Source: a virus (taxonomy: Duplodnaviria; Heunggongvirae; Uroviricota; Caudoviricetes). From it: a stretch of 36,684 bases of DNA. Position numbers and translations under genes: made by a program. The stretch lies in the IMG/VR virus record IMGVR_UViG_3300031998_000033, positions 1 to 36,684 of that record; one strand, written 5' to 3'. Positions 7,735 through 30,733 of the stretch are shown here, in pieces. Below the pieces are notes generated by a model. That model was given only the letters and a program-made list of their open reading frames with translations, did no database searches and was not told the origin of the DNA. Every line of letters starts with the position of its first letter. Within the stretch, counting starts at the first letter, position 1.

Positions 7735-8055
7735 ATGACGAAAAAGCAGATAGTTTCGAAATTCCTCGACTGGGCGACGAAAAAAAACCTAACGCCTGAA
7801 ATCGGATATCTTGACCGGAACGGGAAAAACAGTGGATACAAGATATTCCGCCTTATGGAATATTTAGACGGAATGCCATGGACTACTGTATGTTTCGAAA
7901 TATTTCCGCCGGGCACGACGGAAATGACCGGATGGTATTCGATCATAAAGCGCAAATGCGCGGACACGCTCACCATAGACCAGTTCTCCGAGGTCGGAAT
8001 AGGCAAGTCCGCCTCGATAGAGGAATTCATGCTTAAACTGGAAATAGCCGGTTGA
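7735..8055 (+). CDS. hypothetical protein
   Basis: 106-aa ORF packed in operon, AAAGG RBS, ends TGA. Confidence 0.6.
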   Translation: MTKKQIVSKFLDWATKKNLTPEIGYLDRNGKNSGYKIFRLMEYLDGMPWTTVCFEIFPPGTTEMTGWYSIIKRKCADTLTIDQFSEVGIGKSASIEEFMLKLEIAG

Positions 8056-8067
8056 AGGAGACACGAC

Positions 8068-8751
8068 ATGCATATGTTTTTAGTAAGAGGCATTCCTGGT
8101 TCAGGTAAGTCGACGTTTGCAGCCAAGATGTTCCCGGGCGTATTCCATATCGAGAACGACATGTTCCATATTAAAAACGGCGAATACAGATTCGACGCCG
8201 GGAGACAGAAGTCCGCCGTGTCATGGTGCATGGACATGTGCAGGACGGCGCTTGCGAACGACATGGACGTCGTCGTATCCAATACGTTTACGAAGCGGCG
8301 GTATGTCAAGGCGTATATGCTGATGGCGCTCGAAGCCGGCGCCGAATTTACCGTCTACAAGATGAACGGGTCGTTCGAAAACTCCCATTCCGTGCCGGAA
8401 GACGTCAAGAAGAACATGGCGGCGGGCTGGGAGGACTGGAACGGCGAAATCTGCGTCTATCCGAACATGAACTTCGACAAAGACGATCCGGCATGCAGAC
8501 TTTACATGCTTACGAAATTAAAAGTCGGCGACCATGTCCTGGCGGAGCGTCGGATCGGGGGAATCGACGTCGTGCATATAACGGCCGACGACCCGTTGCC
8601 CGAAATGGAAAAAGCCGAAGCCGTGGTAACGGACATTCGCCAAGGAACATACGACTATCTTAACGTCTACCTTAAATTTCTCGACAACGGCAAAGCCGGA
8701 ATCGCGATGTCCGGGGATCTGGAAAAAATCCCGACTGGCCAAAGTAAATAA
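8068..8751 (+). CDS. P-loop kinase (AAA_33 / N4BP2-like polynucleotide kinase fold) with C-terminal extension
   Basis: LVRGIPGSGKST Walker A, VVVSNTFT, NSHSVPE; AAGGAG RBS. Confidence 0.8.
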   Translation: MHMFLVRGIPGSGKSTFAAKMFPGVFHIENDMFHIKNGEYRFDAGRQKSAVSWCMDMCRTALANDMDVVVSNTFTKRRYVKAYMLMALEAGAEFTVYKMNGSFENSHSVPEDVKKNMAAGWEDWNGEICVYPNMNFDKDDPACRLYMLTKLKVGDHVLAERRIGGIDVVHITADDPLPEMEKAEAVVTDIRQGTYDYLNVYLKFLDNGKAGIAMSGDLEKIPTGQSK

Positions 8752-10785: not shown

Positions 10786-11283
10786 TCAGCTCTAAGAAAT
10801 AACGGCCCTGGCGTCCATAAGCGCCTTGCCGAGGAGGTTCTGGCCTTTCCAATTGGCCTTGTCGCGTATGCCGGAATCGCCTTCGGCCAGGCCGATCCCC
10901 CAGATTTCGTCAACGGGAGACGCCTCTACCAGTTCCGCGCCGCCTGTCGAAAGCAGGAATTCCTTCAGTTTCGAATCCTGCGAAAACTTGGCGGTATTGC
11001 CCTTGACAACTATGCCGTATTTGACAGCGTCCCACTTCGCCGGATCAAAACCCCTGACTTCGCGTCCCAGATTTTTTATGACGCGCGGTTTGTCGGACGC
11101 CAGTATCTTCTCCAGCGTCTCGCCGTCGCCGAACGTCCTGGCCTTTTCCGCCATCATGTACTGCTCTGCGCAGTTGTACCTGACGCCATCGATCTCGAAC
11201 GAGCACGGCCACCACTGCGACAGGCAGCCCTTCTGCACGGTCTTGACGTCGCCGATCCCCCAGAAAAACACGAAATCGCCCAT
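10786..11283 (-). CDS. NADAR (YbiA/DUF1768) ADP-ribose/N-glycosidase family protein
   Basis: LSQWWPCSF, AEQYMMAEKARTFGD, KNLGREV, GNTAKFSQ, LVEASPVDEIWGIG, GQNLLGKALM; reads through TAG 10792 to TGA 10786. Confidence 0.9.
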
Positions 11284-21998: not shown

Positions 21999-22004
21999 AT
22001 TATA
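21999..22004 (-). promoter_or_regulatory. putative -10 (TATAAT) 6 nt upstream of ATG 21992
   Basis: AAGA-TATAAT-ATAATT-ATG with no SD. Confidence 0.45.
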
Positions 22005-22353
22005 TCTTAACGGCGTCGTCTTCTGTCGGCTTTTCTTTTTCCATGCCCGTTATCTCCAGAAAATTCGCGCGTAAAAACGACCTGAATGAATTCTTTTCGA
22101 CGTCCCAATATATAAACCGTTTCGGGTTATACTTGGCGCGTCTCTTGACACGATATCTAGGCAACATATCCGGACGCAGCGTCCCGCGCGCGGTCCTTAC
22201 GGAATCGTCGGACTTCTTCCTGTATTTAAACTTGACAATGCCTTTTTTCAGCATCCTGCGCAGACGCTAAGACTCCGCCCCAGAAAGATCTTCGCACAAT
22301 GCGATAAGTCTTTCTATTTCTATCGTATCAAATATACCGTCCAAGTCGATCAT
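22000..22353 (-). CDS. SH3/WYL-like beta-barrel (DUF2693-type) phage protein
   Basis: GIVKFKYRKKSDDSVRTARGTL...YWDVEKNSFRSF; ATG 22353 via one TAG. Confidence 0.65.
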
Positions 22354-22388
22354 GTTATTATTTACTCGAAAACGGCATGCCGGCGGCG

Positions 22389-23063
22389 TCAATTATAGAC
22401 ACGGCGGCATTTGAATACGATACTCCACGTCCCATCTACGGCAGCTACGTCATCTACGACGTCCGTCGCGCCGTTTTTTCCTATACGCCTTGTCGGAGAC
22501 ACATCTCCGTACGCGCCGCATCCGCATCCGAACGTGCCTGCGGCCCTGCCGGACGCCCGCCGCAAATATTTCTTGGACGGATGAAATACACCGCGGCCGG
22601 ACGCCATTACGTAAAGCGCGTTGTCTTCGTCGAACTCGCCCATATTATAGCTTGGCTCGGCTTCGAAGTAAAAGCAGACACTGGCCGTGTCGAATTTCCC
22701 CGTCTTATTGTTTCCGATCGCGTTGAACCTCGGATATACGACGTCACCGAGCCTCGTGTCGGGATACGTCAGAAGCCGGCCGTCCGAAAGCCGGTGCGTC
22801 CTGTTAGTCATGCCGGCGAAAGCGATATCGACAAGTTCGCCGGCCATGTCATACCGTATCAGCATTTCGCCCGTTATCCGCTGCGTCTGATATACGCGAC
22901 GGCCAAGCGATTTCGCATTGTCATACACACGCGGAATCCTCAAGACCATCTTGAACTAATATGTGTCTTCGGTAACAAAACCAACCGGCGCGCGCGATGG
23001 ACCGGCGCCGAGTAAAAACAAACTGAAAACCAACAGGTATTTTATGTATTTTTTAGCCGACAT
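22389..23063 (-). CDS. secreted/periplasmic hypothetical protein
   Basis: GGAGG RBS, signal peptide MSAKKYIKYLLVFSLFLLGAG..., one TAG, CGCG motif; ends TGA. Confidence 0.65.
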
Positions 23064-23127
23064 TGCAACCTCCGTCCAGCGGCGCATACCGCATGTAAAT
23101 ATTTACCGGAGTTAGCGATGCCGACAC

Positions 23128-23880
23128 TTATCTGAAAATCGCAGTTGTCTTATCGCCAAAATCGCCGATTACGGTACAACAGACATTCTAATGCTTGGAC
23201 AAACGCTCATCGCTGGAAATTTTCTTCCAAACCTCATCGTACGTCAATGTATCCGCCGCATATTTACGAAGCGCTATCGTAAACTCGCCGCCGCTTGATG
23301 ATCCATAACTATATGAATTGTCCTGGCATCCGCTCCAGCATAGCATCCCAACCGACGAGCGGGCCTTTAATCCGGATTTAGCGGCGCCTGTCAGCCTTAT
23401 GCCGGGAGACCTAAACATCGTTTGGCTATGGCAGCAGTCGAATATGAGAAACACGCGTCCTTTCGCGGAACTTACGATATTCCAGATGTCGTTGTCCAAA
23501 ACGCCTTCATCATAGCAGCAGATGTATTCATCCCGGCCGTCGGTTTCGAACGGATCGGAGGACTTCATGCTTCCGCCATGGCCGCTAAAGTATATTATGG
23601 CGAAATTGGATTGTACGGCGTCTTTCATCGCAGACGTCACAGCCTTAGCCGTAGCCTTACTATCCTTCAGCAGCGTGATCTTGGACGAATACGGCTTAAG
23701 CGCCTAGACCATATCGTCGGCATCTTTCAACGTACCATCGCATTTCCCGGCGTATCCGTTTTCCACGCCAATAACAACGGCCGCAGCGCCATTTAAGTCC
23801 CCGCCAGTCCCTGGCTTAAAAATGTTAACACAACCGGCAACAAACATAATGATTGCCAAAATGCAGACAAAAAACTTCAT
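23128..23880 (-). CDS. caspase-family (peptidase C14, metacaspase-like) lipoprotein
   Basis: AAAGGAG RBS; MKFFVCILAIIMFVAG-C lipobox; VIGV, DADDM, AT, FSGHG (catalytic His), DE.ICCYD, LIFDCCHS (catalytic Cys), SGC.D..YSY, GGEFT; 2 TAGs; ends TAA. Confidence 0.8.
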
Positions 23881-23994
23881 GTCTTTTTTCTCCTTTACAA
23901 TATTTTATCTATGGTATTTTATCCGAAAAACCTAAAAAATTCTAATCCCAGCATATTCTGCTAAACAAGCTTCATATCTGCTTTTTTTGTTAAA

Positions 23995-24693
23995 TTATAT
24001 CTTAAAAATCAACTTGCTTCTATTCACATCAGTTAAAACAGTATTGGCTGGAACTAGCCATTCTTGCTCATCATATTCTATAGCTTCATTCACTCTGAAG
24101 TCTTTGACATCTCTATCATACTAATATTTTAGAAGTTCTTCATTTGGATAATTCTTGTAAACATATATATATCCATCAAGTAGTGCACCAAACCAGTTTT
24201 TATTGTGGTGGTCAATGCCATACTTATCGCAGATTTTATCCATATTGAAATCTGTAACTATCTATTCTATGACTTTTATAAAGTATGACAAATCAAAAAG
24301 CTTGATAGAACATGACTAGATAGTCATAACATAATCATCTCCATCAGCAAAATTTGAAGCTGCTACCCAATCTGTTGAAAATGATGATATATGTTTCAAT
24401 GCACATTTATCAAGTGCTAATGCTTTATTCTTCTAATCTCTGGTCAACCCTCTATAGAGTTTGCTTTTCACAAATGAGCCATATGCTTTTATTGCTTTGT
24501 CTAATAGCTTGTCGCTTATTCTATCATCACATTGGTATTGGCATAAGTCAGTGATGTCTTGCGCTGTAAGTGCTCTAGCAGAAAATAAAGCATTGTCTTT
24601 AACCATTTTGCATATAGCATCATAAATCTAATGATATATTTTGTAATATTCAACATTATCTATTATGTTTGGATAATATTTCTTAAAGCTCAT
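23995..24693 (-). CDS. T4 ModA/ModB-like NAD+:arginine ADP-ribosyltransferase (232 aa; absent from the standard-code track)
   Basis: ATG overlaps the nrdG stop (TGATG); open frame with 5 TAGs to TAA 23995; R-S-E class motifs LYRG, ISSFST, ASNFA and DEQEWLVPA. Confidence 0.75.
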
Positions 24694-25172
24694 CAGAAAT
24701 CTTCTCCTCTCTTCAAGATCCTCTGATTTCTGCTTCCTCTAAAAGGGATGCTCAGATCTTTCTGCTCTTTGACAAATGGCCCATCAACAAGCACATCAAT
24801 ATACTTCAAAATGTCTTTCATGCTGTCATCAGCCTGTATCTCTTCAAGAGTGTAGCCTGACCACAGCCACTGGTCTTTGTCTGGAAACCTCTCGCGGATC
24901 TCCTTCGCAAGCGCTATCACCTGCTTCCTGTTGTCCGACAGCCTAGACAGCGGCTCCCCGCCGAGGAACGATACGCCTCTGCACCACGGCTCCTGCATTT
25001 CTTTGAAGATCTTCTCCTTCGCGGCCTCGTCGAACGGCCTGCCGAACTTCTCGTCCTGCGCCTCGGGGTTGAAGCACCCCGGGCATTTCCTGGCGCACCC
25101 GCTGACGAAAAGAGAAACACGAAAACCCGTCCCATTGGCAATATCCGCCCTTGTTATCGAAGCGTAATTCAT
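24693..25172 (-). CDS. nrdG: anaerobic ribonucleotide reductase activase (radical SAM)
   Basis: NGTGFRVSLFVSGCARKCPGC (CxxxCxxC), LGGEPL, VLVDGPF, FRGSRNQRI. Confidence 0.95.
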   Translation of the reverse strand: MNYASITRADIANGTGFRVSLFVSGCARKCPGCFNPEAQDEKFGRPFDEAAKEKIFKEMQEPWCRGVSFLGGEPLSRLSDNRKQVIALAKEIRERFPDKDQWLWSGYTLEEIQADDSMKDILKYIDVLVDGPFVKEQKDLSIPFRGSRNQRILKRGEDF

Positions 25173-25174
25173 AA

Positions 25175-26263
25175 TCAGGCCTCCAATCCGTTGTGCTTGA
25201 CTCGATGCTCGACCTCATCCTGCTTGCCAAAGTTGAAAGCCGTCTTATAATCGCCAGTCAAGTAGCCTGTCACGCGTCTTAACCGCTGCACCTTCTCGCT
25301 TCCGCACTTTGGGCAAGGTCCTGGAATGTCGCCCTAAAACCCGCATTCCGTACAGAGATCGCTCGGAACATTGATCGCGAAATACGGAATGTCCTTGTCC
25401 ATCGCATAGTTGACGAGCTCCTCCAACGCATCTATATTGTTAACAGCCGCGGAATCAAGCTCGACGTATGTGATGCAGCCAGCGCTCGAATACCCCGTCA
25501 GCTTCGACTCTACATCTATCTTCTCAAACGGCGTCATCTTCTTCCACACCGGCACGTGTATCGAATTGGTGAAGAAGTCGTGGTCCGAGACGTCCTTGAT
25601 CTCTCCGTACTTCTCCTTGAACTTCTTCATAGCGGTGTAGCAAAGGTTCTCCGCCGGCGTGTAGTATACGCCGAAATTCAGCTTGAGCTCCTTCTTGTAC
25701 TTCGCGCACTTGTCCTTGAACAGCTGCTCTATCCTCTGCGCGAGCTCCATGCCCTTCTCTTCGACATGGTCGCATCCTATCAGGATCTGCAGCGTCTCCG
25801 CGAGCCCGAGCTGCCCGACGACGAGCGTACCGTGCTTCAGCGCCGACCTAATGCCCTCTTCCGGCTTATATCCGTATATCGTCCCATTCTCGTACATGAA
25901 CTTCGCGGACTTGGCCGGCTGCGAGCATATCCAGTCGAACCGCTCGAGCAGCATGTCCTTAGCCTCGCCGATCTTCTTGTCGAGTAGCTTCAGGAACTCC
26001 TCGACCGGGTCGGTCTTGTTCTTCTCAGCCTTCTCCATGGCCTGCATTGCAAGAGTTGGCATGATGATGGTGACGGGGCAGATGTTCCCGCGCCCGTCTT
26101 TTTGATTAGCGGAATAATAACCTGTATCGTTTCCATTCAAACAGTCTGAAACAACTTGCTTAATGTCGAAATTAACGTCCCACCCATTGTAAGTACGACA
26201 GCCCATTGTTGACGTAACATTAAGCGGACTTACGTAATTATCGACTAATACCACTTTTTTCAT
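25175..26263 (-). CDS. nrdD: class III ribonucleotide reductase, C-terminal half (NrdD-b)
   Basis: Own GGAGG RBS and ATG 26263; STMGCRT (thiyl Cys), DGRGNICPVT, YYTPAENLC, FTNSIHVP, CTECGF(TAG)G...CPKC Zn site, RRVTGYL glycyl-radical loop; ends TGA 25175. Confidence 0.93.
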
Positions 26264-27390
26264 TAAAAAGTTCCTCCATTTGGTAAATTGCCAAATAATT
26301 GAGATTGTTAAGTTTTGCTGTCTTCCGTTTTACGACATCACTTCCAGCCCAAACTAAAACCTGCTATTGTTCAATCCAATTCTTCGGATTAATTTTACAA
26401 TGTTCTAAGTGCTCGATATGAATTGGATTATTTTCATCAAAAGGCTCAATATAATGTGTCGGAAAAAGATTCAATTCAATAAACAAATCAAGTGATTTAA
26501 TATAAAAATCGCAATTAAACGGATATCTAACATCATCTCTAAACTATCTAATAACATTGTCTTTACCATATACATCGCACAAATATTCATAACAATCTGT
26601 TTCAGGTTTACTTGTATTAAATGTATGATTAACGCGTTTAGAACATTGAATCTTATCTTGTATGCTTTTATTATTGCGCATGCTGTTTATTTCGTCAGAC
26701 GCAAGATAAAATTGAACGTTATATCTTTCCAGCATAGTACGCTTTGCTTTCTCTCTATCTCCGCGTACGCCATTTCCGCCATAACGCTGCTTACACGTCT
26801 CAGTCGCCTTATGCGCGTTATTCCAATTATAGTCTCCATATTTATTCAGCTTAGTCTGTTTTATCGACTGCTGATGGTGAGGATCTATGCATCCACATCT
26901 ATGACAACAATGATCGTTGTAGCCATTCTCATTCAAACTGTGTTTCCCCAAAAACGGAATAAGCTTGCCGCAAACTGGACAAATTGGCTTTGATTTCATG
27001 TTGAATACCAACCAATAAACCCTTTCAACATCAGATTCAGCGTTTGGAAACATCTTACGTAAACTGTTAACCAAATGTATATTGCTTTTATTTCTGGTCA
27101 ACCACGTATAATAACCTTTCGGACTTGCCCAGAAACGAGCTATTATTTCCTATTTATATTGTTCTTTCATGATGCTTCTATATTATATTTACCAATATAG
27201 ATTAGCATAACTTACGCCAATTATTCATCTATAACAGTAAACCCGAAAAGAGCTGCCTCTTTAGGGTTCTTTTCTACCCATTCAACTAGTCGCTGCATAT
27301 CTTGTTTTGACAAAGAATCAAGATATTTCTGTTTTTCATTTCGGTCAAATTCGATTCCAGTAATATCATTACTCCAATTTGTCGATACGT
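26105..27390 (-). mobile_element. AT-rich homing-endonuclease cassette with flanking co-converted nrdD sequence (boundaries approximate)
   Basis: Abrupt switch from C/G-ending codons to A/T-rich sequence near LYPNY (about 27390) and back near KDGRGN (about 26105); endonuclease ORF in the middle. Confidence 0.65.
26238..27170 (-). CDS. free-standing putative homing endonuclease (Zn-finger + repeat domain + C-terminal PD-(D/E)xK/Vsr-like nuclease), 310 aa
   Basis: ATG 27170; CPVC...HCCHRC, K.T.L.KYG/RYG repeats, SKPE, VIR(TAG)FRDDVRYPFNCDFYIKSLDLFIELN, DVVKRKTAKLNNLNY; 3 TAGs; ends TAA 26238, overlapping nrdD-b start by 26 nt. Confidence 0.75.
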
Positions 27391-28573
27391 AGTTGGGGTA
27401 AAGGCGCAACGATGTGGACTTGAGCGCGAGGCGGAAAAGGTCGTAGTTAGGGTCACCCTCTTTGCGGTTGACGCCCTTCATACACTGGAAAATGCCGCAC
27501 GGGAATATCGCGGTCTTATGGAACTTGCCGCATCCTTTGATGCTGCCCTCGATCAAGGCCTTGGTGACCATCCGGCCTTCCGGAAGAGTGCATGTCCCGT
27601 AATTGATGGACGTGAACGGAAGCTGGCAGCCGCTGCGGCTCTGGAGCGTGTTGAGGTTGTGATACATCCCCTCCACGGCCTGGTTCAGCTCTTCGACGGT
27701 TTTTTCCATCGCGTATTTATACGCCGGAAGCTCGTGGTTATACCAGTCCGAATCGATAGAAAGCTACTTTATCTCGTCCCTGGACAAAGGCGACTTGCCA
27801 GAATGCTCTTCTTTAATCTTTGACTTGCTCATCAGATCAATGAACCGCAAACCATCGAAGTAGTGCTTATGAAAGCTAAGTCTTACGTACGGCACCATCG
27901 TCCAGTCGAGGTGTGTGGCCGCGACGCCGCCGAACTGCTGCAGGCTCTGGAGCTGGAAGATCACCGCGACGAGCTGCATCGCGGTATTGATAGATCCGGC
28001 CGGCCTGACGTCGGTCTGCCTCGTGTTAAAGCCCTCCGCGAGGAGCTTGTCGAACGGTATGGAAAGGCAATTATGATTGCCAACCGCATATGCGTCGAGA
28101 TCATGGATATAGATCTCGTTATTGTTGTGGTTATGCCTGGCCTTTGTCGAGATAAGATGCTCGAGCGCATAGCTCTTCATCACATAGCTCGCGGCTTCGC
28201 CAATGCGCCCGCCAAAGCTGAACTCGTCGACATTCGCGTTCTAGTTCTAAATGTTGGATGCGGTCAACTTCTCGGTCAAAGCCTTGCTGGTCCTAACGCG
28301 CTCTTTTTCATAACGGTATGTAATATACTGTTTTGCGACCTCGTATCCCTACGCTTCCATAAGCTTACGCTCGATGGCGTCCTCAAGCGCATCAATGCCG
28401 ATGGGCTCCTCCATCGCCTCACATGCCGCAAATACAGTATCAGTAATGCGCGTTATCTGCTTTTTCGTCAGTCTGTCTTCTTCTGCTACCGCCATATTGG
28501 CGTTGCATATCGAATCGAATATTTTCTTTTTTGTAAGCAGTTCTGTTTTGCCGCTCCTTTTAACCACATTCAT
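27221..28573 (-). CDS. nrdD: class III ribonucleotide reductase, N-terminal half with ATP-cone (NrdD-a)
   Basis: GGAGG RBS, ATG 28573; VVKRSG ATP-cone, ASNI(TAG)N(TAG)NANVDEFSFGGR, IYIHDLD, GNHNCLSIP, QFGGV, HNLNTLQSRSG.QLPFTSINYG, IFP..IF, LYPNY; 4 TAGs; ends at true TAA 27221. Confidence 0.93.
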
Positions 28574-28589
28574 AATATCCTCCGGCACA

Positions 28590-28610
28590 GGTCATGGCAA
28601 AGCCATGACC
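28590..28610. promoter_or_regulatory. hairpin immediately upstream of the nrdD-a RBS
   Basis: GGTCATGGC-AAA-GCCATGACC perfect 9-bp stem, no U-tract. Confidence 0.35.
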
Positions 28611-28626
28611 GACGATCATTTAAAAC

Positions 28627-29040
28627 TCAGTTTATAAAAACCTCCGGCTGCGGCACAAGATCGGGAACTTGGCATCCGTTAAGGTCGAACATGAACTCCG
28701 CTCCGGCGACAGTGTTGTCGCTCTTGCAAATGGACAGCCTGATCTCGGTCGGCTCGTCGTTTTTCACCGCATGCCTTATATAGGCTATAAGCTGCGCGAC
28801 CTAAGCCAGTACAGTACGATCTCCGAACATTTTGATTTCCGCGTCTGCAAGCGTAATATTGCGCAGTACGTTGTTCTTAATCTATTCGTCCAAATCGCTT
28901 GCGGCCATCTCCTGCTCTTCGGCCTTATCCATTTCGGCTAGGCTCTATCCGGTTACATCTATGTCCGCATCTATGTCTACTACGTTAATTTCTTCCGTTT
29001 CAGCCGCAATGGCATTCTTCTCAAATTCTTCATTATTCAT
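28627..29040 (-). CDS. acidic hypothetical protein (137 aa; missed by standard code)
   Basis: MNNEEFEKNAIAAETEEINVVDIDADID...; open frame with 3 TAGs, ends TGA. Confidence 0.65.
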
Positions 29041-29199
29041 GTTTTATATTATTCCAATCTAGACACACGGACCTGACCGAATGAACAAACACTTATTACT
29101 TACTAAGTCTTCAAACTTCTGTATCCTGTAATTTTTATTTAGAAAATTTCTAGAAAATTTAAAAATTCTAAAAACTCATATTCGATTCATATACAAAAT

Positions 29200-29898
29200 T
29201 CAGATTTCAAACGTAAACGGACTGTATCTGACGCAATATGACTCATCTACCCGCGATACGTTAACAACAACCGTATTCCAAAGCTTAAACGGCTCATGCG
29301 ATCCACTATGTATATGACCGCATACGACATACCGCGGTTTTTTGTCGAACAATGCATCAGAGAGTTCAACTGAACCGAATTTCCTCGAGTCTTTTCCGTA
29401 TTCAAGCGATACGTCTCCGAAATAGCCCGGAAGATTCGGAGGACTGTGCGATATCAGAATATCTACATTTTTCGGAATATCCGCGAACTTACGGCTAAGC
29501 GTTCTCGAATCAGCCTCGAATGCCCACTGTCCGTTTATGACCGGCACCCAGGGAACTCCGTAGAACCTTATTCCGTTCACAACGGCCTATGAATCACAAA
29601 GGTATTTTACATTACCGGGCCAGTCTATATGCCAGTCTATTCCAGGATATTTCGAAGTAACGGCCTTGTCCAAACACAAATCATGATTTCCCGCTACGAC
29701 GACAAATATCGTATCTGAAAACTAGCCTGCCCATTTTCTGAACTTATAGTATATCCAATCGCGCTAATCTTTCGTCTGCCATTTGCCAAATCCCGTCTAA
29801 CGCGTAAAATCTCCAGCTATGACGCATATGTCATATCCTGAGACGTCAAGGCCTTCAAGCATACCGTGCATATCGGATATAGCGGCTATCTTAATCAT
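29200..29898 (-). CDS. calcineurin-like metallophosphoesterase
   Basis: ISDMHG, IAGDF, AGNHD, LISHSPP, VCGHIH; 4 TAGs in the N-terminal half. Confidence 0.88.
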
Positions 29899-29944
29899 AT
29901 TTTTATTGCTTTTCGCGATTGCGATAATTCAAACCGCCGCGTTC

Positions 29945-30733
29945 TTACGACATTCCCCATTCGTCTCTGGCGTAGTTCGGCAGTTCCTTAAACGCCGGGC
30001 CCGGGATATTGACAATGTCCGTCTTGAATCGGTTCTTGATAAACCTGCCGTAAATTTCAGCATTAAACGCGACGTCTTCTACGTTCTGGCATCTGATAAG
30101 CCTGTCAAGCCGTTCATATGTAAAACCAAGCTTGTCTTCGTCTGAAAGCGGCTGTAGTCCGTCTACGGGCGTCTTGTCTGCAAGGACGTCGGGAATGCCC
30201 AGCCATTTTGCAAGCGACTTAACTTCAGTCTTGGTAAGGCCTTTTATAGGCGCATAGCACCCCATATTATCGCCTCCAAACGTGGAATACCCCACGACGT
30301 CTTCGCTAAGGTTGCACGTGTTGACGACGACACCTCCGAGACACTGCGCGACCGCGAACAAAACCGTCATGCGGATACGGGCCGGCATGTTAATCCTGCA
30401 TGCATCAGTGGCGTCGATCGCATTGTTCTCTACGCCGTTCATCAGAATATTGAACGCGTCTCCTATATCGATAGTAACGCGCCTGATTCCGAGCTTGTCG
30501 AACACCGCGTTTACATCCGCCATATCATGCTGTCCGTCGCATGGAAGCGACACGCCTACTATGCGGTTTCTGCCGAAAATCCTCACGGCGAGCGCGGCGA
30601 CGCATGTCGAATCGACGCCGCCGGAAATCCCCACCACGTAAACACCCGGCATGACCTCATTGTTCCAGGCTTTCCAATCGCGCTCGATTTCCGCATAAGC
30701 CCGGCTGGGTTCTATAAAAATATTTTTTTCCAT
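29945..30733 (-). CDS. nadE: NH3-dependent NAD+ synthetase
   Basis: VGISGGVDS, NMPARIRM, TCNLSE..VGYSTFGGD, PIKGLTKTEV, DEDKLGFTY. Confidence 0.9.
   Translation of the reverse strand: MEKNIFIEPSRAYAEIERDWKAWNNEVMPGVYVVGISGGVDSTCVAALAVRIFGRNRIVGVSLPCDGQHDMADVNAVFDKLGIRRVTIDIGDAFNILMNGVENNAIDATDACRINMPARIRMTVLFAVAQCLGGVVVNTCNLSEDVVGYSTFGGDNMGCYAPIKGLTKTEVKSLAKWLGIPDVLADKTPVDGLQPLSDEDKLGFTYERLDRLIRCQNVEDVAFNAEIYGRFIKNRFKTDIVNIPGPAFKELPNYARDEWGMS

Follow-up and report, generated by a model that had tools for sequence, protein, structure and literature searches.

ADP-ribosylation by the Mod and Alt enzymes of phage T4 is the classic case of a phage reprogramming host transcription and translation. 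ModA modifies the alpha subunit of RNA polymerase and ModB modifies S1, EF-Tu and trigger factor; ModB also attaches NAD-capped RNAs to proteins (RNAylation). Among ADP-ribosyltransferases (ARTs), an R-S-E triad marks the enzymes directed at arginines of proteins, while Tpt1/KptA fall on the H-Y-E side and are without these motifs. The R-S-EXE motif is named in PMC10468400, where R73A is reported to inactivate the ADP-ribosyltransferase activity of ModB and the R73A,G74A double mutant, the form assayed, lost both ADP-ribosylation and RNAylation. Since the Mod and Alt/VIP2 families are among the commonest viral ARTs (PMC9503650), a Mod-type enzyme in a large phage is expected rather than surprising. 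Here we describe a putative Mod-family gene that directly follows nrdG, the gene for the anaerobic ribonucleotide reductase activase, in a 36,684-nucleotide stretch of DNA from an uncultivated phage of the Caudoviricetes (IMG/VR virus record IMGVR_UViG_3300031998_000033, positions 1 to 36,684). This stretch, hereafter the window, opens a 105-kb record (G000), of which it covers the first 36.7 kb; CheckV estimates a completeness of 43% for the record.

The account that best explains the locus as a whole, and which we regard as probable, is that a Mod-family ART gene with TAG read as glutamine, coupled to nrdG, was acquired together with nrdG codons 94-159 from a clade of low-GC phages. The gene and its three motifs are located as follows.

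23995..24693, minus strand: Mod-family ADP-ribosyltransferase gene, 232 aa with TAG read as Gln, five TAG codons (open reading frame, hhalign, phrog_832, dN/dS, TAG/CAG/CAA exchange)
24448..24459, minus strand: LYRG, motif of the putative catalytic Arg81, aligned with ModB L-Y-R73-G (L79, Y80, R81 and G82 invariant in 13 sequences)
24373..24387, minus strand: SSFST (S103-T107), S motif of R-S-ExE, aligned with ModB D-S-F-T-T (S104 and F105 invariant)
24058..24072, minus strand: DEQEW, ExE motif (E209, E211), aligned with ModB R-E-Q-E-W and ModA D-E-Q-E-V (E209, E211 and P215 invariant)

An alignment of the seven family members (A3) was compared by hhalign with an alignment of T4 ModB, ModA and their homologs (A4). 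The two matched with a probability of 97.5% (E 5.6e-12) over 162 collinear columns, spanning query positions 10-228 and Mod profile positions 11-185, with the three motifs in register. Similarly, the window protein matched phrog_832 ("RNA polymerase ADP-ribosylase"), to which T4 ModA and ModB belong, at E 3.7e-6; this profile is matched by 6 of the 7 family members (best E 8.7e-7), in the same register as by T4 ModA and ModB (1.7e-33 and 1.1e-41, respectively). A single BLASTP comparison with T4 ModB gave a collinear alignment with 25% identity over 177 aa (E 0.001). In this family the catalytic Arg (ModB R73, ModA R72) belongs to an (L/W)-(Y/W)-R-G strand, a Ser motif S-x-S/T comes after the second strand, and E-x-E leads into (M/L)-x-P; the window protein agrees at each. 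As read from the T4 record, ModA carries LWRG and DEQEVMIPA and ModB carries LYRG, SFTT and REQEWMIP, and E209-Q-E211-W-L-V-P215 of the window protein stands opposite E-Q-E-W-M-I-P of ModB. Besides the motif residues listed above, A112 and Y137 are invariant in the 13-sequence joint alignment, as are M1, D46, Q54 and L64 near the N-terminus. An earlier annotation made from the letters alone, hereafter the sequence-only reading, had proposed a Mod-like ART matching the R-S-ExE signature of ModA and ModB, and these comparisons bear it out. As judged from these matches, the open reading frame (ORF) encodes a divergent new member of a known family, the T4 ModA/ModB R-S-ExE mono-ADP-ribosyltransferases, and no new kind of system is involved.

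Like T4 ModB (NP_049636) and ModA (NP_049635), members of the Mod family within the R-S-E clade, the predicted product is a small single-domain phage protein (~200-230 aa) and aligns with them collinearly over almost its full length. LYRG is identical in ModB, SSFS stands opposite SFTT, and DEQEW stands opposite REQEW in ModB and DEQEV in ModA. It differs from them in its low identity (~25%), in two insertions relative to ModB (residues ~119-136 and ~156-177, about 17 and 22 residues) and in that PF26816 is not listed for family members. In addition, T4 modA and modB belong to the srd-modA-modB early region, whereas the window gene follows nrdG and, with five TAG=Gln codons, is probably not early. 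The R-S-ExE triad is shared more widely with T4 Alt and other R-S-E ARTs (DraT, C3, SpvB, VahC/VsdC, Vis, ExoS/T), and the core of the structural model (residues 75-224) superposes on R-S-E toxins at Z 3.5-5. In contrast to these enzymes, the window protein has neither the large N-terminal region of Alt nor a secretion or immunity partner, and it has no significant sequence similarity to any solved structure. Sequence searches of the PDB with the protein and with the family profile found no relatives, and a search of the PDB with the ModA/ModB profile found no solved Mod structure. One relative gives a weak DRAT match in Pfam (E 7.6e-4), and relative P0008 a weak DRAT lead at 0.90 in the protein atlas.

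Under translation table 11, the region 23900-24890 yields merely fragments of 40-57 aa. The sequence-only reading had noted that no meaningful standard ORF exists here and that code 15 gives a 232-aa protein with LYRG, SSFST and DEQEW and five TAG codons, all of which we recovered. The TAG codons are residues 22, 87, 126, 144 and 191 and make up five of the nine Gln codons of the gene; their density, 21.6 per 1000 codons, is the highest in the window (6.2 for the record), and nrdG has none. A search of 5.8 billion clusters and 1.84 billion representatives returned seven full-length relatives (46-90% identity), together with standard-code fragments of the same gene (P0007, P0009-P0011). A metagenome scan contributed L088 and L089 as the sole additions; the family profile found no match in IMG/VR, and tblastn against 50,697 phage records gave nothing significant. 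A six-frame search of the record with phrog_832 and a search of it for the Gp23 capsid family of T4-like phages gave no match, and their controls were equally silent.

Read with TAG=Gln, the ART frame shows purifying selection: pairwise dN/dS (nonsynonymous to synonymous rates) is 0.10-0.31. It could instead be supposed that the frame is a dead gene or no gene at all and that its TAGs are true stops, which would agree with the fact that standard-code callers see only fragments such as P0007 and P0009-P0011. We give this next to no credence, because the nrdD alignment shows TAG=Gln, the low dN/dS extends over the entire frame, and the TAG positions are either common to relatives or swapped for CAG or CAA, a replacement found at three aligned codons. 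Moreover, L004, the most distant relative, is full length with zero TAG. L005 uses TAG for the Q within its E-Q-E motif.

TAG is a sense codon for Gln throughout the whole record. Two TAG sites in the nrdD of the window stand opposite Gln in 62 of 77 and 77 of 78 homologs, and 205 in-frame TAGs were counted across 113 ORFs of the record by a greedy call (longest non-overlapping ORFs, some doubtful frames included). Genes without TAG and TAG-rich genes are mixed along the record. tRNA scans of the window and of the 105-kb record found no tRNA, hence no suppressor tRNA is visible on this fragment. For stop-codon-recoded phages, Borges et al. 2022 reportedly set out a code-switch model. The gene is hidden, as the sequence-only reading had called it, from standard-code gene callers but not from the phage itself. 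Gut and rumen phages with TAG=Gln are a described group whose genes are broken by standard-code annotation (PMC11210395). The ART gene here was likewise unseen by table-11 callers, but nothing about the code is new; recoding merely hid the ART family from databases.

By its place in the R-S-ExE clade, the protein would use NAD+ to mono-ADP-ribosylate arginines of host proteins during host takeover, the putative motif residues being R81 in LYRG, S104 and S106 in SSFST and E209 and E211 in DEQEW. RNA polymerase, the ribosome or RNAylation could be proposed as targets purely by analogy with T4. The ATG of the gene overlaps the TGA stop of nrdG by one base (TGATG), with AGGAG lying 10 nt upstream within the nrdG tail, so the gene is predicted to be co-transcribed and translationally coupled with nrdG. 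Since five TAG codons have to be read through, the protein would be made only once TAG=Gln decoding is active. Judged from this code use, its expression may come later than that of the early modA and modB of T4, which would leave room for an Alt-like packaged role. The TAG richness thereby raises a testable point, namely a Mod-type enzyme that can be produced only after the code switch. The neighborhood of the gene is one of nucleotide and NAD+ metabolism (NADAR, ThyX, split nrdD, nrdG and NadE). The NADAR domain protein is encoded at 10786-11283 (E 1.7e-54) and a TAG-free NAD synthase, NadE, at 29945-30733 (E 2.7e-46); NADAR, NadE and the ART could form an NAD+/ADP-ribose toolkit.

The second part of the proposed history concerns a tract of unusual composition that covers the ART gene and ends inside nrdG. 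Its elements are the following (GC3, GC content at third codon positions; o/e, observed over expected).

23836..24892, no strand: recombination tract, 1057 nt, GC 0.33, 4 CpG, o/e 0.15 (GC and CpG scans)
23881..23994, minus strand: AT-rich spacer following the ART gene (similarity to relatives stops at the ART stop codon, the left edge of the tract)
24693..25172, minus strand: nrdG (anaerobic ribonucleotide reductase activase), intact, TAG-free, chimeric (Fer4_12 E 2.9e-48; phrog_626; shift in GC3, CpG and identity)

GC falls from ~0.52 to 0.29-0.34 between ~23800 and ~24850. CpG dinucleotides are dense up to 23835 and again from 24893, and between these points only four are found, at 23924, 24228, 24513 and 24562. 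The CpG at 24893 lies in nrdG codon 94, and the final 66 nrdG codons are CpG-free, in agreement with the sequence-only reading, which had described the tract and the last ~65 nrdG codons as AT-rich and CpG-poor relative to the flanks. This compositional shift is far beyond chance: CpG o/e averages 1.46 (sd 0.18) over the record, and among 2080 scan windows of tract size the minimum outside the tract is 0.84. Within nrdG, GC3 is 0.78 over alignment codon columns 1-95 and only 0.48 from column 96 onward.

We compared nrdG, by codon alignment, with a clade composed of the ART-carrying L001, L003, L005 and L088 plus L013, whose members have GC of 0.31-0.43, CpG o/e of 0.28-0.44 and in-frame TAG that is read. 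Codons 1-93 of the window gene have the native composition and codons 94-159 that of the donor clade. Over all positions, identity between the window and the clade is 63-68% in codons 1-93 and 79-83% in codons 94-159, while identity within the clade is 75-88% and 81-87%, respectively. At third positions the window shares 28-39% with the clade in codons 1-93 (saturated) and 59-64% in codons 94-159; the corresponding values within the clade are 55-75% and 58-73%. In codons 1-93 the window is no nearer to the clade than to outgroup phages (61-64%). Because identity to the clade rises at codon 94, nrdG is a chimera whose last third derives from the low-GC clade, and the earlier claim of recombination inside nrdG from a lower-GC donor is upheld. 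The break point of the exchange in nrdG can be placed to within a few codons.

DNA similarity to L001, L003 and L005 spans the ART gene and stops at its stop codon. The crossover points would be near 24893, within nrdG, and shortly beyond the ART stop codon, and a high-GC, CpG-rich phage would have received nrdG codons 94-159 plus the ART gene from a low-GC, CpG-poor, TAG-recoded clade of large phages. Judged from the sequences, homologous exchange with a member of this clade would be the simplest account of the tract. The L005, L088 (432 kb) and P0006 contigs have the ART gene directly after nrdG; in L003 one ORF separates the two. As nrdG followed by the ART gene is the usual order in the donor clade, homologous exchange is favored over insertion of an island, the term used by the sequence-only reading. 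Its further argument, that five TAGs imply a TAG-recoded donor, does not hold either: this phage reads TAG as Gln throughout, so TAG use is uninformative about the donor. Among the sister genomes, the ART gene is present in L001, L003, L005 and L088 and in 0 of 80 nrdD-related IMG/VR loci. The chimeric nrdG would represent a remarkably sharp trace of homologous exchange between phages that differ widely in base composition.

Composition might also have arisen in place, by local selection or mutation bias acting on the ART gene and an overlapping regulatory region, with no transfer at all. In L088, too, the ART gene has a higher AT content than its flanks, and the nrdG tail holds the ribosome-binding site of the ART gene and so could be constrained. 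Composition alone cannot, however, create the jump in third-position identity to the clade at codon 94, where it reaches the level seen within the clade; the switch begins ~120 nt upstream of the repeat and ribosome-binding region, and CpG depletion is absent from the other low-GC islands of the record, among them the one with the endonuclease inside nrdD. We therefore favor transfer and consider an origin in place very unlikely.

An artifact of metagenome assembly, joining two related phages inside the conserved nrdG, would place the chimerism in the contig and not in the phage. An artifact would be in keeping with the uncultivated nature of this viral genome, with the position of the right-hand junction in a conserved gene, and with the fact that no other IMG/VR contig contains the exact words at the junction. 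Yet two joints within 1.06 kb would be needed, and the left of them falls in DNA without homology; the 63-83% identity of the nrdG halves to sampled relatives does not suffice for k-mer bridging; and neither reading frame, nrdG or ART, is broken, nor is the TGATG overlap. Furthermore, a 277,570-bp ENA contig, whose reads may or may not be independent, encodes a NrdG identical to the chimeric NrdG of the window, with the same 813-nt gap to the next gene. Such an artifact is extremely unlikely in our judgment. The identical NrdG on a contig of this size indicates that the phage is a jumbo phage.

Several observations weigh against the combined account of a Mod-family enzyme gained by exchange. 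With respect to the exchange, L001, the nearest relative, stands at a dS of 0.55, and the true donor is therefore not among the sampled genomes. The ART homolog of L088 (58% identity) is AT-rich relative to its flanks (GC 0.25 vs 0.44, 8001-8500), and for this reason part of the low GC of the ART gene may belong to the gene itself and not to a recent transfer. With respect to the family, a phmmer search of 1.84 billion representatives recovered nothing beyond the family itself and fragments of it called under the standard code. The local Pfam copy gave no match for the window protein, a blank that is uninformative because T4 ModA and ModB are also unmatched there. In the precomputed Pfam column, PF26816.1 is given for all six ModB homologs and '-' for P0002-P0006. 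With respect to the fold, a first AlphaFold2 (AF2) model from 7 sequences reached a pLDDT (predicted local distance difference test) of 60.3, with catalytic regions below 50, and was unusable; a second from 13 sequences reached 65.6, which is low confidence. Foldseek against the PDB gave no match at E <= 0.001, the top rows being almost all ART toxins, and the best VIA-align score (Z 7.4) lies within the range of common arrangements.

By its sequences, then, the family would be a divergent sister subfamily lying outside the Mod boundary of Pfam, which is operational and not biochemical. It was missed earlier because standard-code calling fragments the gene and the Pfam model does not reach the family. 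With this family, the range of Mod-type enzymes comes to include uncultivated TAG-recoded megaphages (277 kb or more); 7 full-length members were found among billions of predicted proteins. Having diverged in nature while keeping the catalytic triad, these sequences lend themselves to studies of target choice.

The second AF2 model places strands on LYRG, SSFS and EWLV, and VIA-align of residues 75-224 matched almost solely structures of the ART superfamily. The best alignments were to Tpt1/KptA (Z 7.0-7.4; rmsd, root-mean-square deviation, 2.4 over 72 residues at Z 7.4), with R-S-E toxins at Z 4-5. The ART fold had been put forward for checking by the sequence-only reading; Foldseek gave it no backing at its threshold, while AF2 and VIA-align agree with it moderately. 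Taken together, the models are no more than moderate evidence, consistent with an ART fold but not proof of one.

The ranking of the structural matches bears on a different role for the same fold, that of a nucleic-acid-directed ART, a NADase, a counter-defence enzyme acting on a host immunity protein, or an Alt-like packaged protein. Tpt1/KptA act on RNA/DNA phosphates, two insertions of the window protein are not in ModB, and its TAG density is contrary to T4-like early expression. The phage also encodes a NADAR protein and NadE. Many phage ARTs are packaged or fast-evolving conflict enzymes (PMC9503650). Against such a role, the full R/S/ExE triad is kept, the sequence homology is to ModA/ModB and not to KptA, and the KptA ranking comes from a low-confidence model. 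We judge a different chemistry or role unlikely and retain arginine-directed mono-ADP-ribosylation as the predicted activity.

The 3' end of nrdG, which carries the initiation signals of the ART gene, is itself repeated in two relatives. The copies are given below.

24693..24769, minus strand: nrdG-tail junction repeat, the last 25 nrdG codons, AGGAG and the TGATG start of the downstream gene (single copy in the window)
L003 2450-2526: repeat copy, non-coding, between a 243-aa ORF and the ART gene
L001 485-560: repeat copy upstream of a 289-aa ORF
L001 1354-1430: repeat copy forming the C-terminal tail of the 289-aa ORF, right before the ART gene

The repeat corresponds to the last 76 nt of nrdG, and extra full copies occur at non-nrdG junctions, two in L001 and one in L003. 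Copies were counted only if at least 65 nt long (n = 3, on two short contigs). Partial matches of 13-27 nt to the nrdG tail in L001, L003 and L088 were not counted, as they are maybe just the local ribosome-binding consensus. The nrdG tail may be a portable junction element of TAG-recoded megaphages, at which accessory cassettes are inserted, swapped and expressed by homologous recombination. We advance this tentatively, with the balance tilted somewhat against it, as a lead from a small sample. The cassettes would comprise the Mod-like ART and a 'WFHG[ST]' protein family, and the translation-initiation region would be borrowed from the core gene nrdG. The repeated tail hints at how accessory genes move in these genomes.

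A comparable arrangement is known in T4-type phages, where PeSL (promoter-early, stem-loop) mobile regulatory cassettes mediate modular shuffling (PMC2839356, PMC4122927). In both cases a short conserved sequence with expression signals borders variable accessory genes and provides the homology by which they can be inserted, deleted or replaced. Whereas PeSLs combine a promoter and a stem-loop that flank variable ORFs, the window repeat consists of the coding 3' end of nrdG together with a Shine-Dalgarno sequence and a start codon. Promoter and terminator scans and folding of the spacer after the ART gene gave no signal above shuffled background and no convincing terminator. The resemblance would thus be one of role only, by analogy. 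If the proposal is true, the repeat would be a coding-sequence analogue of PeSL cassettes, and the ART of the window such a cassette caught after transfer into a compositionally foreign genome.

The remaining observations concern the surroundings of the tract. nrdD is split in the window (25175-28588), with its N half at 27221-28588 and its C half at 25175-26263, and is contiguous in L013, L015, L008, L009 and L088. Between the halves lies a homing-endonuclease-like ORF (26238-27170; phrog_3339, DUF7487) in an AT-rich, CpG-normal island of its own. An Rfam search of 22000-30000 found no RNA family and no group I intron. We rejected co-conversion by a homing endonuclease as the cause of the tract: between this sole endonuclease-like ORF and the tract lie 1.1 kb of native high-GC nrdD, and the island that holds the ORF shows no CpG depletion. 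Just downstream of the tract, 23128-23880 encodes a caspase-family protein (Peptidase_C14, E 7.2e-17) with an N-terminal hydrophobic, lipoprotein-like leader; none of the 80 related loci has a counterpart of this gene or of the four ORFs that follow it. In L088 (ODAI012083904.1, 432,079 bp), an AT-rich patch coincides with the ART homolog and nrdG is unaffected. CpG o/e of the whole record is unusually high (1.47 at GC 0.495), and the nearest nrdD/nrdG relatives are those with CpG o/e of 0.28-0.44 and GC of 0.31-0.43. This large compositional split within one phage group perhaps mirrors different hosts.

Finally, unannotated proteins are encoded around nrdG and the ART gene in the relatives (L001 561-1430; L003 538-1233 and 1720-2451; L088 8737-9930). 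An N-terminal region 'W-F/Y-H-G-S/T ... F-x-T ... A-x-x-Y' is apparently common to the 289-aa ORF of L001, the 243-aa and 231-aa ORFs of L003 and the 397-aa ORF of L088. BLASTP links only the L001 289-aa ORF with the L003 243-aa ORF (E 2.3e-6) and the latter with the L088 397-aa ORF (E 6.2e-5); the 231-aa ORF was placed by eye. The 'WFHG[ST]' motif recalls the H-Y-E side of the ART superfamily, although no library supports that. An ORF of 172-182 aa just downstream of the ART gene (L001 2165-2683; L089 421-951) has a sub-threshold match to the PARP catalytic domain (E 0.031) and may be a second ART-superfamily gene beside the first.

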